A stretch of 64,000 nucleotides of DNA from Pelagomonas calceolata (lineage: Eukaryota): assembly GCA_918797485.1 (NCBI GenBank), contig CAKKNE010000004.1, positions 3,224,001 through 3,288,000 on the forward strand. Direction: 5' to 3'. The notes beneath the pieces were generated by a model. It saw only the letters and a program-made list of their open reading frames with translations. It was not told where the DNA came from and ran no database searches. Below, piece by piece: positions 24,508 to 30,946 of this stretch; position 1 is the first letter of the stretch, and every line of letters begins with the position of its first letter. The translations under genes were made by a program, and so were the position numbers.

Positions 24508-25323
24508 ATGCCCTCCCACCTGCAGCCTCTCCTCGTCGTCGCATTGATCGCATTCGTGCCCGCGGCGACCGCACTAGTGGTCGGAGGCATCGACATCCCA
24601 CATGCAAAAGTATCACCCACGTCCCGAGCATTAGAGGACCAGACCTACCCCGACAGGTGGCCCTTCGACGCTCGGGATTTAACGCCGCAGGACCCGAGCG
24701 ACGACCAGCTCTTTTATCTCATCCCGAAATTCGTGCAGCATGCGGGAGCGGAATGCAGGGAGTCACTGACAAAGTACTACGGCTGCGTCCTGCCGGATAA
24801 TGGTGATGTGCTGGATTTGTGCAGCTCCTGGACGTCGCACTACCCCAAAAACTACAAAGCGAAGCGCTGCGCCGCGCTCGGGTTGAATGCGTTGGAGCTC
24901 CTCGCGAACCCCGCGAAGACCGAATGGACCGTGCGGAACCTCAACAAGGACCCGACTTTACCTTATGATGATAATAGCTTCGACGTCGTCACGAACAGCC
25001 TGTCGGCGGACTACCTCACGAGCCCCCTCGAGGTGTTCAAAGAAATCAGGCGCGTGCTCAAGCCGGGCGGCCTCGCGGCGATGGCGTTTACAAATAGATG
25101 TTTTCCCTCGAAAGTAGTCCCGTGCTGGACGCGGCCCTTCACGGAGCCGTCGCACGCGCGCATCATCGCTTCTTATTATCATTATGCGGGCTTCGATGAT
25201 GATGATATATCGGTGGTGGACGTGTCGCCCGACGGCTGGGTGGGCCAGCGCGATCCCATGGTCGTCGTCCAAGCGCGGAAAGCGCCGGCCGACCGGTTGG
25301 GGAGCCTCGAGGCGCTGGCGTAA
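24508..25323 (+). CDS. SAM-dependent methyltransferase (type 11), signal peptide
   Basis: VLDLCSSWTSH, LPYDDNSFDVV, S.DYLT.P..VF.EI.RVLKPGG, FTNRCFP. Confidence 0.9.
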   Translation: MPSHLQPLLVVALIAFVPAATALVVGGIDIPHAKVSPTSRALEDQTYPDRWPFDARDLTPQDPSDDQLFYLIPKFVQHAGAECRESLTKYYGCVLPDNGDVLDLCSSWTSHYPKNYKAKRCAALGLNALELLANPAKTEWTVRNLNKDPTLPYDDNSFDVVTNSLSADYLTSPLEVFKEIRRVLKPGGLAAMAFTNRCFPSKVVPCWTRPFTEPSHARIIASYYHYAGFDDDDISVVDVSPDGWVGQRDPMVVVQARKAPADRLGSLEALA

Positions 25324-25979: not shown

Positions 25980-26017
25980 CGTTGACGTGGTACCTGCGCG
26001 CGGCGCCGCGTCGCGTA

Positions 26018-26088
26018 AACCGCCCGAGGGAATCGAACCCCCACTGCGCGGGCTAAAGCCACGAGTCCTCCCATTAGACCAGAGCGGT
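26018..26088 (-). tRNA. tRNA gene with TTA anticodon (putative ochre suppressor; Glu/Gln-like body)
   Basis: Reverse complement folds as ACCGCTC TG GTCT AATGGGA GGAC T CGTGG CT-TTA-GC CCGCG CAGT GGGGG TTCGATT CCCTC GGGCGGT T: all four stems pair, with T8, A14, G18G19, T33, TTCG and A15-T48 present. Confidence 0.85.
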
Positions 26089-26411
26089 CGTGGACGCCGG
26101 CGCGGCGCCTCAGTCTCGTCACGACGACTGCGGAGGCGACAGCTTTGCCTGTGGGGAATGGGGTCTGGCGCTGCGCTTTTGATGCGCGCGGCGACGGCGT
26201 GGTGGCTGCCCTCTCTTTGGCGGTGCGCGCGTCGATTACGAGACACGCGTTAGCTCACCTATGCACTGCACAGCGAGGAATGCCACCACAAACAAAGTGG
26301 CCTCTTGCAAACGAGTTCGGGTTTTGCGCGTGACCACCGAGCTCTGCCGCCACGTAGGACTCCTCCTGATGCACAGCAGAATGATGCCTAACGGACGCAT
26401 CCCGGGAAGTG

Positions 26412-26435
26412 GCTAGTGTCTTACAGGCCGCTAGC
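26412..26435 (+). promoter_or_regulatory. CTAG-N14-CTAG element, consensus copy
   Basis: gctagtgtcttacaggccgctagc between divergent transcription units. Confidence 0.85.
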
Positions 26436-26608
26436 GGATTATATGCTCTCCGCGCGCTCGAGAGAGAAAGCGGCTCACGGGTGCATTTCAGACGCGCTCA
26501 CGCTGTAGACCAGTAGCTGAGACTGCCACCCAGCACTCCAGCAAAAAAATCCGCTCCGCGCGGCGCTCAGCACGAGCAACAGCCTCGATCCACCCGCAGC
26601 GAAACGCC

Positions 26609-28312
26609 ATGGCCGAGATCACCGTCGGTTCAGAAGTAGAGAAGAAGTTCCCGGGCTACGGTGTTTATCAGGGCACCGTCGAATCCATTGATGGTGATAC
26701 GTGCCTCGTGCGGTGGCGCTGCGCCGAGCCCGAGGAACCCACGACTTTAACACTGGCCGAGGCCGCCAAGTGCCTCGTCACCAAGCACAAATCACCCCCA
26801 TCGAAGAAGAAAGCCACGAAGAAGCCCGCGCCCAAGCGCGCCCCACCCACTGATGATGAAAAACCGTCAAAGAAGACGAAGAAGGACCCGCCCAACGCGG
26901 CAGCGCTCGCGAACGCGCCGGGCGACGCGAGCTGTGCGGCCGAGGTGCGCACGGGCCTCAAGAAGGTTGAGGCTTATGCCCAGAACTGGTTGAGCAAGCA
27001 CAAGAAGGATGACGCGCCTTCGGGAAGTGAGGTCGTCGAGATGTTGAAATTGCTCAATGGGAAATGGCCGACGCAGGCCCGGCCGAACGTGACGGACACC
27101 GGAAGACCGGTGCCGGGCATGTGCGCCGGGTTGGTGTTCGCTCTAGGGCAAGGTGCTCGCACGTCGCTGATCTCGACCAATCATCCCCAGATGACGAAAT
27201 TTCTGGTCAAGTGGTGCCGGGCGACGCTCCCGAAGACGAAGAAGGGCGCGGAGTTCCCCTTCTCGTCGCTGCAGGTCAATTATAATTATGCGGTGCGATG
27301 CCGCGTATCTTACCGTCGCGTCGATGGCGTCCACCGTTGACACGCGCAGGCCAAGAAACATGTTGATGGGAATAATATAGGACCGTCCTACATCATCTCG
27401 CTAGGGAAACACACGGGCGGCAACCTCTGGACGGCGGACCAAGGTATCATCGAGTGCCACGACCAGTGGAAATTGTTCGACGGGAATACCGAGCACTACA
27501 CGACGCCCTTCAAAGGTGAAAGGATTTCATTTATAGCCTTCGCCCACGAGCAGTACAACAAGCTCGAAGCTCCAATCGCGAAGAACTTACAAAGCTTAGG
27601 CTTCACGGCGGCGCGGTCGGATCGAAAGGATCTGGAATTCTTCGCTCGGTTTCGGATTGAGCGTAGTTACTTGACGGAGGAACACAACGCCAAGTTCAAG
27701 GCCGAGCTCAAGAAGCGCGCGCAGAAAAGCGCGCCGGCCTCGACGCTCAAGCTGCATGATGTGGCGGTTGAGTGCTATGGCAGGCAGGCGGACCGGGGCG
27801 GCGGCTGGATGGCGTTCCACGGTATTAATGGTGTGGAGACGTTGCAACTCACCCCGAACAGTGTGGGCATTTGGTGCGCGGAGCTCAAATTTGTTGATGG
27901 CAAGCTCGCGTTAGTTTCGCACAAGCGGTTGGACTTCTATAATAAGAGAGAAAAAGCCACCGCCGAGTTCCAGAAGCAAGTCGAGAAGATGAAGGACGGC
28001 ACGCCCGTGTTACTCGGTATTGCTGATACGGCCTGCGCCGCGTCGCGGCCGTTGGGCCAAGGTTTGTATAATGCGCTCTACAAGCTCGGCGCGCCCAAGG
28101 ACATGCCCAAGATCGAGTACCGGGCGGCCTGGGCCTTTATTGGCTATAAAGGAGCGAAGGCTGGTACGGCGCAACACGCCATGGGCACGCGGTCCACTCT
28201 ATTGAGATTGGACGCGTCGATCCCGAAGAAAGGGTCCCTGGTGAAGAAGGACGTCGACAACACGTCGATCATCGACGTCTGCATCGGCACGGGCCAGGAC
28301 TCTGCCAAATAA
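26609..28312 (+). CDS. Tudor + TET/JBP-like 2OG-Fe(II) dioxygenase + ILEI-like domain protein; exons 26609-27292 and 27350-28312
   Basis: GT-AG intron 27293-27349 gives LQVNYNYA-AKKHVDGNNIGPSYIISLGKHTGGNLW...LFDGNTEHYTTPFKGERISFIAF (HxD..H..RxS); N-term VGSEVEKKFPGYG; C-term LG.....IEYRAAWAFIGYKG. Confidence 0.75.
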
Positions 28313-28403
28313 GTATCTAGTAACAAGCAGGTAGTTTACTTAGCGCGGAGCGTCGGCTCCGTGCGACACGATGTTGCGCCTGGGGCGCGAACACAACACA
28401 AAA

Positions 28404-28823
28404 TCAGGTGGAGGGCTTCGCCAGGCTCCACTTCGAGGCGGAAGCGCGCGACTCCGTCAGAGGGCTCACCACTGGTTGCTCGATGTCGAAGCTCACGGCG
28501 CGGACCCTCGTGTCCTCGGGCACGGCCTCCACGGGCGCCACGGGCTTGGCGTGGCGCGACGCCGAGAGCTCGTCTTCTGGGCCCTCCTTCGACTCCTCGT
28601 CGAGGACAGCGTCTACTTCTATCGGCTTCTCCTCGGGCTCGGCGAGCGTCGTCCGCTTCGATTTCAGGCACGCCGCGACGGCGCAGCAGACGATGGCCAG
28701 GACGACCAGTAAAGAGGTCGTGGCGCGGCTCCGGCCGCCGCGGGAGGCCGCGTGGTGGACGGCCGTGGCGTTGTGCGCCGCGGCCACTGCCAGGCAGAGC
28801 GCTGCCCTGATGTGGATCGTCAT
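28404..28823 (-). CDS. Small single-pass membrane protein
   Basis: Signal peptide plus TM SLLVVLAIVCCAVAACL, acidic tail. Confidence 0.55.
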   Translation of the reverse strand: MTIHIRAALCLAVAAAHNATAVHHAASRGGRSRATTSLLVVLAIVCCAVAACLKSKRTTLAEPEEKPIEVDAVLDEESKEGPEDELSASRHAKPVAPVEAVPEDTRVRAVSFDIEQPVVSPLTESRASASKWSLAKPST

Positions 28824-29233: not shown

Positions 29234-30946
29234 ATGGCAGCACACGTAACCCAGCAGCTCAGCAGCGCTTCCTTGGAAGACGCCTGCGACGACGACGACG
29301 TGTATGAGGTCTGCACGCACGTCGCCATCGTGAGAAAAACACCGGAGCTCGACAGCCCGGAGTTAGCCGCTGTCCCAAGAGGAGCAAGAAATCTGCTGCT
29401 GGAGGGCGACTTAGGGAAGCTTTCCAAGCACGTGAGGCGGGTGCGCTGGCGGGTAGGAAGGGACGAGGGCTTTGTTTCCAGAAGATGTGTGAGACCTGTC
29501 TCCTGGAAAAGTATCTGCCGACGGACGGGACGAGCGCGCTGGCGGTTGGATGTTTCCGACTGGCGGCCCGTGCGCGGCGAGCAAGGTAGGGAGTGGGCGT
29601 TCCTGATGGATCTGATTCCCGAGCCGTCAGAGAAAGAAAGAATAGGGAGGTTCCACCACGCGTCCGACCGGTACAAGGCGTTAGTATCAAGGTTATGTGC
29701 GCGTAGAGTGTGCGCCGTGTGTTTAGGGCTCGAGGACGCGACTGTCGAGGTCGGACGGACCAAGGGCAAGAAGCCGTTCTTGTTACAAGGGGGTTCAGAT
29801 GAGAAGCCGAACTTCAATTTCAACGTGAGCCACGACGGGAGGCATGTCGTCGTATGTGCGGAGCCTCGTACAGTAGTAGGTGTCGATGTGTGCGCCCCTG
29901 ATTCGGAACGGAAGGGCGGCGGCGAGCACGACCTCGAGGCCATGAAAGATATGTTGACAGCACGGGAGTGGGCCTGGTTAAATACTGAAGATAGAGCTGA
30001 AAGATTCAGGTTGCTGTGGAGCGGGAAGGAGGCCTTCGCGAAGGCTCGGGGCGACGGCCTGGGCTTCGAGTTCAAACGGCTGGATCTTGTTATCACACAA
30101 GTCAAATGTAAGGATGGGCGACGGCTCTTCGAGGGTAAACCCATTGTGGATGGTGTTTCACTGGAAAAGGAGTGGCGCCTGTCGCTCGAAATCTTCGAAG
30201 ATGGACACGTCTTTGCCTCCGCGAGAGGGCCGGTCCATGCTGTCGTAGATGCGCACGGCCTGTTCAAAGCGACCCTTCGAAAGCAATCAATCACGTCTGA
30301 AGAGTTAGACGCAGACTTACATCTCGAGTGGACGCCTTTATCTATTGCAGACTTAGTACCCGACGAGCAGAGGAAAGCCTACCTGAGGTGCGTCGACGAC
30401 GATGAGAGATCACTGGCGCCGCCTCCACCAGCACTGTCGCCGGACTCGACGACGCCCGGCTCCGTGCGCTACCAGACGTCGCCGCCGCCACCGGGCGACG
30501 TGAAGAAGGGGTCTGGCGTTTATGTAAGTGAGGCGCCCATGGACTGCCAATGGGCCGTCTACGGGCGCGACGACGATTATCGATCTTCTTGTGCGAAGGA
30601 TGGGTGTGTCACGAACAATAGGGGCATGATCCTAGGTTATCTCACGGAGACGCAAGCGGGGTCGGCTTCCGAGGAGTTTTTGGGCGAGCTCGAGCCCGAC
30701 GCCACCGGTTCGGCGTTGAACGCGCTCGATGGCCAGGATACGCATATTTGTACATTACATTTGGACGGCTGTCGTTTAGTATCATTGGAAGGGTCGACGC
30801 TGTGTGAAGTCGACCGCTCGGGCCGGATTCTCGGGCCGCGGTCTCAAGTATTAGGTGAGGTCCGGCCCTTTTCCTACGCGATGCAGCGCGAGGTCGCGCT
30901 GTATCTATGCTTCCTGGACCCGGGTTTATTGGATTCTCAAGTGTAA
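29234..30946 (+). CDS. 4'-phosphopantetheinyl transferase (AASDHPPT/Sfp type) with N- and C-terminal extensions
   Basis: RTKGKKPF, NFNFNVSHDG, VGVDV, F..LWSGKEAFAKARGDGLG. Confidence 0.9.
   Translation: MAAHVTQQLSSASLEDACDDDDVYEVCTHVAIVRKTPELDSPELAAVPRGARNLLLEGDLGKLSKHVRRVRWRVGRDEGFVSRRCVRPVSWKSICRRTGRARWRLDVSDWRPVRGEQGREWAFLMDLIPEPSEKERIGRFHHASDRYKALVSRLCARRVCAVCLGLEDATVEVGRTKGKKPFLLQGGSDEKPNFNFNVSHDGRHVVVCAEPRTVVGVDVCAPDSERKGGGEHDLEAMKDMLTAREWAWLNTEDRAERFRLLWSGKEAFAKARGDGLGFEFKRLDLVITQVKCKDGRRLFEGKPIVDGVSLEKEWRLSLEIFEDGHVFASARGPVHAVVDAHGLFKATLRKQSITSEELDADLHLEWTPLSIADLVPDEQRKAYLRCVDDDERSLAPPPPALSPDSTTPGSVRYQTSPPPPGDVKKGSGVYVSEAPMDCQWAVYGRDDDYRSSCAKDGCVTNNRGMILGYLTETQAGSASEEFLGELEPDATGSALNALDGQDTHICTLHLDGCRLVSLEGSTLCEVDRSGRILGPRSQVLGEVRPFSYAMQREVALYLCFLDPGLLDSQV

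Follow-up and report, generated by a model that had tools for sequence, protein, structure and literature searches.

To our knowledge, hypermodified bases occur in the nuclear DNA of only a few eukaryotic lineages (base J, 5gmC). The system closest to the one described here is that of the trypanosomes, in which JBP1 and JBP2 work together with JGT, a TAGT (TET-associated glycosyltransferase) type enzyme. In JBP1 the oxidase is coupled to a part that reads the glycosylated mark, and in JBP2 to SWI2/SNF2; base J itself has been described from kinetoplastids and close algae alone (PMC11065753). Systems combining an oxidase with a glycosyltransferase are known from trypanosomes and from phages (PMC11065753, PMC8256090, PMC13229309, PMC6163654). 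Phage TETs oxidise 5mC or T on DNA, and glycosyltransferases are encoded alongside (Burke 2021, PMC8256090; PMC13229309). In dinoflagellates, CryTJ1 and AmpTJ1 were found as divergent TET/JBP homologues by iterating PF12851; they are thymidine hydroxylases which make 5hmU and are reported to prefer non-nucleosomal DNA (PMC11572971).

In the open ocean, Pelagomonas ranks with the most abundant eukaryotes. We analysed a gene of Pelagomonas calceolata situated in a stretch of 64,000 nucleotides, referred to as the window in the following. Like the trypanosome system, the family to which this gene belongs brings together a dioxygenase, predicted to act on 5-methylpyrimidines, and a TAGT-type glycosyltransferase (PMC11065753); SNF2 fusions are found in it as well (P0193, P0234), as in JBP2. 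In contrast to the base J system, the gene belongs to a stramenopile host, an ILEI lectin fold takes the place of the J-binding domain as candidate reader, and the base pocket looks TET2-like (N, H), whereas JBP has D. The best fold matches are TET2, NgTET1, and CcTet, with which the spacings HxD-x-x-N and R-x5-aromatic-x-H are shared. The gene product differs from these three enzymes by its low identity (14-16%), its sub-threshold Pfam score, the fused ILEI domain, the lack of a Cys-rich or CXXC region, and a Gln at the spacing of T1372. Unlike the phage clusters of TET and glycosyltransferase, the gene is eukaryotic and nuclear, and its viral kin are single-ORF TAGT fusions of virophage/Polinton-like elements. 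Compared by description only, it resembles CryTJ1 and AmpTJ1 in being a divergent TET/JBP homologue, whereas no ILEI domain was seen in the description of the dinoflagellate enzymes (PMC11572971).

Gene structure and domain layout

The gene starts with an ATG at 26609 and ends with a TAA at 28310-28312 (Table 1). Its intron keeps the reading frame, carries the TGA at 27338, and splits the dioxygenase domain three codons upstream of the histidine of the HxD motif. Stranded polyA RNA-seq was available as raw reads of four runs of one sample; in these runs 21, 11, 6, and 34 reads, respectively, skip exactly the 57 nt, and this is the sole splice joint listed across 26400-28500. Transcript 5' ends were found at ~26457-26469 and 3' ends at ~28325. 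The gene is real, spliced, and expressed. On the basis of the junction reads and of the intron lengths in relatives, which are often not divisible by 3, we rejected read-through or retention of the intron as the predominant form. The spliced translation of 548 aa is identical to CAH0374433.1 of P. calceolata (P0053).

The initial annotation had proposed a catalytic core hidden by an intron between two exons that are joined. The joining is borne out by the reads, and the motifs quoted at that time are found in the spliced frame. The gene as such is not hidden, as it is present in the public annotation; only its dioxygenase part is unnamed there, the UniRef name being restricted to ILEI/PANDER domain-containing.

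Among 78 metagenome loci, 55 contained both flanking motifs and could be compared at the intron site. Apart from the intron-free majority (Table 1), 12 loci carry an intron at this position, with lengths of 49-125 nt that in many cases are not divisible by 3, and two have an insertion with different first letters. A 12-nt motif inside the Pelagomonas intron is present in eight copies in the window, the others being located, for example, at 1401, 22016, 37211, and 51930. This variable-length, motif-bearing intron resembles the mobile 'introner'-type introns of pelagophytes.

Table 1. Features of the gene and of its neighbours in the window
Feature	Position	Strand	Basis
Coding exon 1 (aa 1-228)	26609..27292	+	sequence, junction reads, protein identity
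57-nt GT-AG intron, in-frame TGA	27293..27349	+	72 junction reads; absent in 41/55 related loci
Coding exon 2 (aa 229-548 + stop)	27350..28312	+	sequence, junction reads, protein identity
Tudor/SH3-like barrel (aa 2-58), accessory	26612..26782	+	pLDDT 79-94; SMN Tudor Z 6.8
Lys-rich disordered linker, NLS-like motif (aa 60-104)	26786..26920	+	pLDDT <50; motif scan
TET/JBP-like Fe(II)/2OG dioxygenase domain (aa 137-312)	27017..27601	+	Pfam sub-threshold, fold, residues
ILEI/PANDER (FAM3 / POMGnT1-stem) lectin-fold domain (aa 362-523)	27749..28234	+	Pfam; Z 15.0
Class I methyltransferase	24508-25323	+	Pfam
4'-Phosphopantetheinyl transferase	29234-30946	+	Pfam

The full-length structure model (38 sequences, pLDDT 87, pTM 0.71) comprises, in this order, a small barrel, a disordered linker, a DSBH, two helices, and a C-terminal domain. 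The barrel gave no match in the Pfam scan. Over 53 aligned residues it resembles the SMN Tudor domain with an rmsd of 2.1 and a Z score below the tool's bar of 8, and the residues F14, Y17, Y20, and W36 are candidates for an aromatic cage. It is found in only 3 of 30 aligned homologues and is therefore an accessory; a Tudor domain as the defining module of the family was ruled out on the same ground. The Tudor-like barrel of the initial annotation consequently stands as a resemblance in fold but not as a hallmark of the family. A second, unrelated N-terminal domain, beta-rich and without Pfam match, occurs in one sub-branch (P0027, P0034, P0037, P0100, P0102).

An NLS-like motif is present in 21 of 30 homologues compared with a mean of 6.5 and a maximum of 13 after shuffling, in agreement with a nuclear, nonsecreted character and with the NLS-like linker noted in the initial annotation. 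No signal or transmembrane segment is apparent among the aligned members. Therefore, the protein is predicted to be intracellular and not lumenal or secreted.

The dioxygenase domain and its relatives

For the fold ranking we used a domain-only model (pLDDT 94) of an intronless homologue with 69% identity. The top matches were NgTET1 (Z 10.9), CcTet (9.9), and TET2 (9.9), and the same three TETs led the ranking for this domain when the full-length model was used. An uncharacterised 2OG enzyme from Burkholderia ranked fourth with a Z score of 9.2, which is a tie with CcTet and TET2, followed lower down by NMAD-1 (9.1), FTO (8.9), PHD (8.3), and LH3 (7.6). The lead over the first non-TET is 1.7 for NgTET1 and below 1 for CcTet and TET2, and the TETs are ahead of the AlkB-type enzymes by 1-2. 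Prolyl, lysyl, and aspartyl hydroxylases were listed at 8.3 or less, at least 2.6 below NgTET1; the prolyl and lysyl enzymes score below both TETs and AlkB-type enzymes, and small-molecule hydroxylases stay below 7. Foldseek ranked CcTet first, and TET/JBP-named viral proteins were among the best matches in BFVD.

At the level of profiles the resemblance is fainter. The Pfam family Tet_JBP (PF12851) matches with 23.7 bits (E 3e-5) against a cut-off of 34.9 bits; it is the commonest Pfam match in the family (16 of 43 members), and its gathering score was reached by none of the members scanned. When PDB sequences were searched with profiles, ILEI proteins were recovered and no TET; PiuC was the only 2OG enzyme among the matches and was insignificant (E about 0.3). 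Since fold and motif agree while the Pfam score is below threshold, the domain is probably best described as TET/JBP-like, with formal TET/JBP membership only in part. The 2OG-Fe(II) core of TET/JBP pattern proposed in the initial annotation is thus recovered, the best structural match being a TET and not a protein or small-molecule hydroxylase.

The residues of the HxD...H iron triad and the 2OG-binding arginine (H232, D234, H277, R286) are invariant in all 30 aligned members, and so is R158. If the aligned starts are continued ungapped, which is not a residue-level superposition, R158 falls within one residue of TET2 R1261, the equivalent of NgTET1 R224. The iron ligands of TET2 were assigned following PMC6244454. 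TET2 recognises 5mC via N1387, Y1902, and H1904, and changes of N1387 or the exchange H1904Q shift the enzyme towards thymine (PMC11804724). We mapped the pocket by motif spacing and alignment end-points rather than by superposition of residues; the end-points fit exactly for NgTET1 and are two residues off for TET2. On this basis N237, F292, I290, and H294 lie at the spacing of N1387, Y1902, V1900, and H1904. Within the 52 ILEI-bearing rows N237 is kept in 49 (the other three have gaps), F292 in 48, and H294 in 32, with P in eight and N in seven; in nine viral rows the position of H294 is taken by L or Q. For the Pelagomonas enzyme the N237/F292/H294 spacing would favour 5mC. Q222 is found at the spacing of TET2 T1372, a residue at which mutation causes oxidation to stall once 5hmC is formed (PMC11065753), and may be a weak hint that oxidation stops at the hydroxymethyl stage.

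The first search yielded 52 relatives; those with a name belong to Aureococcus and to a cercozoan. With a two-domain profile up to 4404 clusters at 50% identity were collected, ILEI-only proteins included. The dioxygenase domain lies below database cut-offs across this large family. A quick tree was calculated from 132 domains, leaving out the near-duplicates P0054-P0095, short rows, and rows without HxD. In this tree a branch of 63 rows (SH-aLRT 99) contains 37 of the 38 ILEI-bearing rows, and 25 of its 26 ILEI-less rows stop no more than 150 residues from the dioxygenase and look truncated. The pair of dioxygenase and ILEI is a conserved protist clade; P0216 lies outside it on a long branch. 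A tblastn search with a family member against GenBank phages gave no match. We also scanned 77 long relatives, 70 of which bear the dioxygenase. TAGT, SNF2, HMG, C2H2, or HA domains scored above cut-off in 8 of these 70 and most had nothing further; a chromodomain is present in one family member. The chromatin-targeted character suggested at the outset is thus supported by the wider family, through its fusions to SNF2, HMG, C2H2, and chromo domains.

The ILEI domain and the link to glycosyltransferases

The C-terminal domain matches the Pfam family ILEI (PF15711) with 35.2 bits (cut-off 27 bits), and its fold is close to the POMGnT1 stem (Z 15.0, rmsd 2.5), FAM3A (Z 14.4), and TMEM2 (Z 11.4). 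POMGnT1 binds GlcNAc through R129, D179, and R207, and a FAM3-like domain without the equivalents of D179 and R207 did not bind sugar (PMC9802357). In the HMMER alignment D454 and R486 are placed on D179 and R207. Both are invariant in the 30 aligned members, whereas V or T takes the position of R129; in P0216, N replaces D454. A sugar site is therefore likely to be present but altered. A further difference from the POMGnT1 stem, FAM3, and TMEM2 is the predicted location, which is intracellular and not lumenal or secreted.

Fusions to TAGT were found in several architectures. P0096/P0237 read TAGT-dioxygenase-ILEI, with a TAGT score of 26.9 bits against a cut-off of 27.5 and an ILEI domain that is cut short. 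The order in P0216 is dioxygenase-ILEI-TAGT (TAGT 38.4 bits), its ILEI part being recognised by a custom profile with 26 bits and within the hhalign alignment, and P0234 reads SNF2-TAGT-dioxygenase. P0240, a 98%-identical sibling of P0096, is called as TAGT plus linker only, without the dioxygenase. Altogether, TAGT is fused in 2 of the 38 ILEI-bearing tree rows.

Two query alignments free of TAGT found eight viral contigs, and in all eight a single ORF encoded the dioxygenase and TAGT. A follow-up search raised the number to ten distinct viral contigs, all with the dioxygenase fused to TAGT, and in the nine fusions scanned Pfam TAGT scored above cut-off. Scans using P0053 or P0216 alone confirmed nothing. 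These ten IMG/VR contigs (L001-L012) are virophage/Polinton-like, with a Sputnik-type capsid in one and an A32 ATPase in three, and the fusion is a single ORF of ~420-430 aa. It is a candidate for a one-protein base-J-like synthase, and its modification perhaps shields the DNA from nucleases of the host or of giant viruses. Pfam matches to a methyltransferase were not found among 58 ORFs scanned from the fusion loci, nor was a C5-methyltransferase found in the one whole viral record searched.

Stand-alone relatives of the P0096 TAGT are present in Aureococcus (EGB11276.1, EGB07407.1), Chrysophaeum, CCMP2097, and Aureoumbra, that is, in Aureococcus and three further pelagophytes. With Pfam, TAGT is recognised in them either below threshold or not at all, and CXXC or PHD-like fingers occur in two relatives. 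The cluster members listed included no TAGT under the name Pelagomonas, and neither the window nor the 78 metagenome loci, which are mostly short, contained one.

Together with the conserved sugar-binding residues, the TAGT link recasts the ILEI domain, which is likely to be a lectin in a hydroxylate-then-glycosylate pathway. We found no description in the literature of the ILEI-dioxygenase fusion or of the virophage TAGT-dioxygenase fusion. TAGT was reportedly defined by Iyer et al. 2013 (NAR), who may already have described the clade.

Proposed pathway, alternatives, and surroundings of the gene

Since relatives of the gene are fused to sugar-adding enzymes, a sugar-coated DNA base resembling base J may be formed in these algae. 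In the best reading the protein is a DNA 5-methylpyrimidine hydroxylase which feeds a glycosylation, with the ILEI domain possibly reading the sugar mark as in JBP1, and we give this reading a probability of roughly 0.55. The protein would be located in the nucleus and hydroxylate the methyl group of a pyrimidine in DNA, with 5mC presumably preferred over T and the oxidation possibly ending at the hydroxymethyl stage. A stand-alone TAGT would then add the sugar in trans. Finally, the ILEI domain could hold the enzyme on DNA which already carries the sugar and thereby maintain or spread the mark, as the J-binding domain of JBP1 does (PMC11065753); this step is the least secure and we hold it to be rather doubtful.

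The CpG o/e of the window is 1.31, and heavy CG methylation in nucleosome linkers has been described for Aureococcus (PMC9998398). If a TET-like enzyme works together with a glycosyltransferase, an additional layer on this methylome would be expected, which bisulfite sequencing could not distinguish from 5mC. In its widest form the proposal is that pelagophytes and other marine protists contain an unrecognised sugar-coated base, either glycosyl-5hmC or an analogue of base J. The clade would make it together with TAGT, and a lectin domain recruited from the extracellular FAM3/POMGnT1 fold would maintain it as a nuclear reader. Such a system would be a convergent counterpart of JBP1 beyond Euglenozoa, and virophages would have single-ORF versions of it. 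This wide form is tentative and less likely than not to hold. If true, a lectin fold reading a sugar mark on DNA would represent a new type of epigenetic reader.

The strongest competitor places the same chemistry on a protein: a nuclear or cytosolic protein would be hydroxylated and then glycosylated by TAGT, similar to Skp1 or to collagen with LH3, and ILEI would bind the glycoprotein. ILEI/FAM3 domains are indeed known as protein-glycan binders (PMC9802357), and GREB1, a TAGT protein, was reported to be a protein O-GlcNAc transferase, so that a TAGT domain does not prove a DNA substrate (PMC7968844). Collagen-repeat genes lie in five of nine viral loci scanned, but those repeats whose starts were inspected are of the Gly-Ala-Thr type. 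With the protein hydroxylases well down the fold ranking, the TET-type N/F/H spacing kept, and SNF2, HMG, C2H2, and chromo domains as fusion partners, we consider a protein substrate unlikely. A lower chance still is given to a plain TET-like oxidase acting on 5mC or T of DNA; Pelagomonas would then lack the glycosylation step, and the ILEI domain would be structural or bind another ligand. It would account for the 36 of 38 ILEI-bearing rows without fused TAGT, for the lack of a Pelagomonas TAGT among the cluster members listed, and for the one missing residue of the three that bind sugar. It would leave unexplained two separate three-domain architectures, the strict conservation of D454 and R486, and the stand-alone TAGTs of four pelagophytes.

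RNA as the substrate, with m5C or m5U in tRNA, rRNA, or mRNA being modified, is suggested by the lowest-ranked row of the structural comparison, a similar diatom cluster with PseudoU_synth_1 in 27% of its members, and by a review according to which at least one TET/JBP clade has shifted to RNA (PMC4738411). However, an RNA-enzyme domain was found in none of the 70 dioxygenase-bearing relatives, and the viral homologues reside with TAGT in small DNA-virus contigs; we rate this possibility slightly below that of the plain oxidase. Hydroxylation of a free small molecule or of a sugar held by ILEI is very improbable: the ILEI domains of other proteins do bind monosaccharides in vitro (PMC9802357), and both the Burkholderia enzyme and PiuC appear in the searches as stated above, but small-molecule hydroxylases score low by fold, and NLS-like motifs and chromatin fusions point elsewhere. 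The reading as a DNA hydroxylase feeding glycosylation is accordingly preferred.

A functional cluster with the neighbouring genes was considered and rejected, as no link of the methyltransferase or the phosphopantetheinyl transferase to the gene was seen. Upstream, at 26017-26089 on the minus strand, ARAGORN identified a tRNA-like element with the anticodon UUA (Rfam tRNA 49.5 bits), which would read the stop codon UAA. The anticodon is kept in 6 syntenic loci of 22 scanned. The element lies inside a 115-nt stretch (~25993-26107) which is spliced from the neighbouring minus-strand mRNA (28 reads). In three loci the start of the acceptor stem shows indels, and the flanks are conserved about as much as the body; therefore, a pseudogene or a repeat within the intron may be a better description of the element than a suppressor. 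At ~26412-26442 minus-strand reads match over only ~30 nt and continue unlike the window on both sides. Here the window has a short repeat in common with a transcript that originates from another place.
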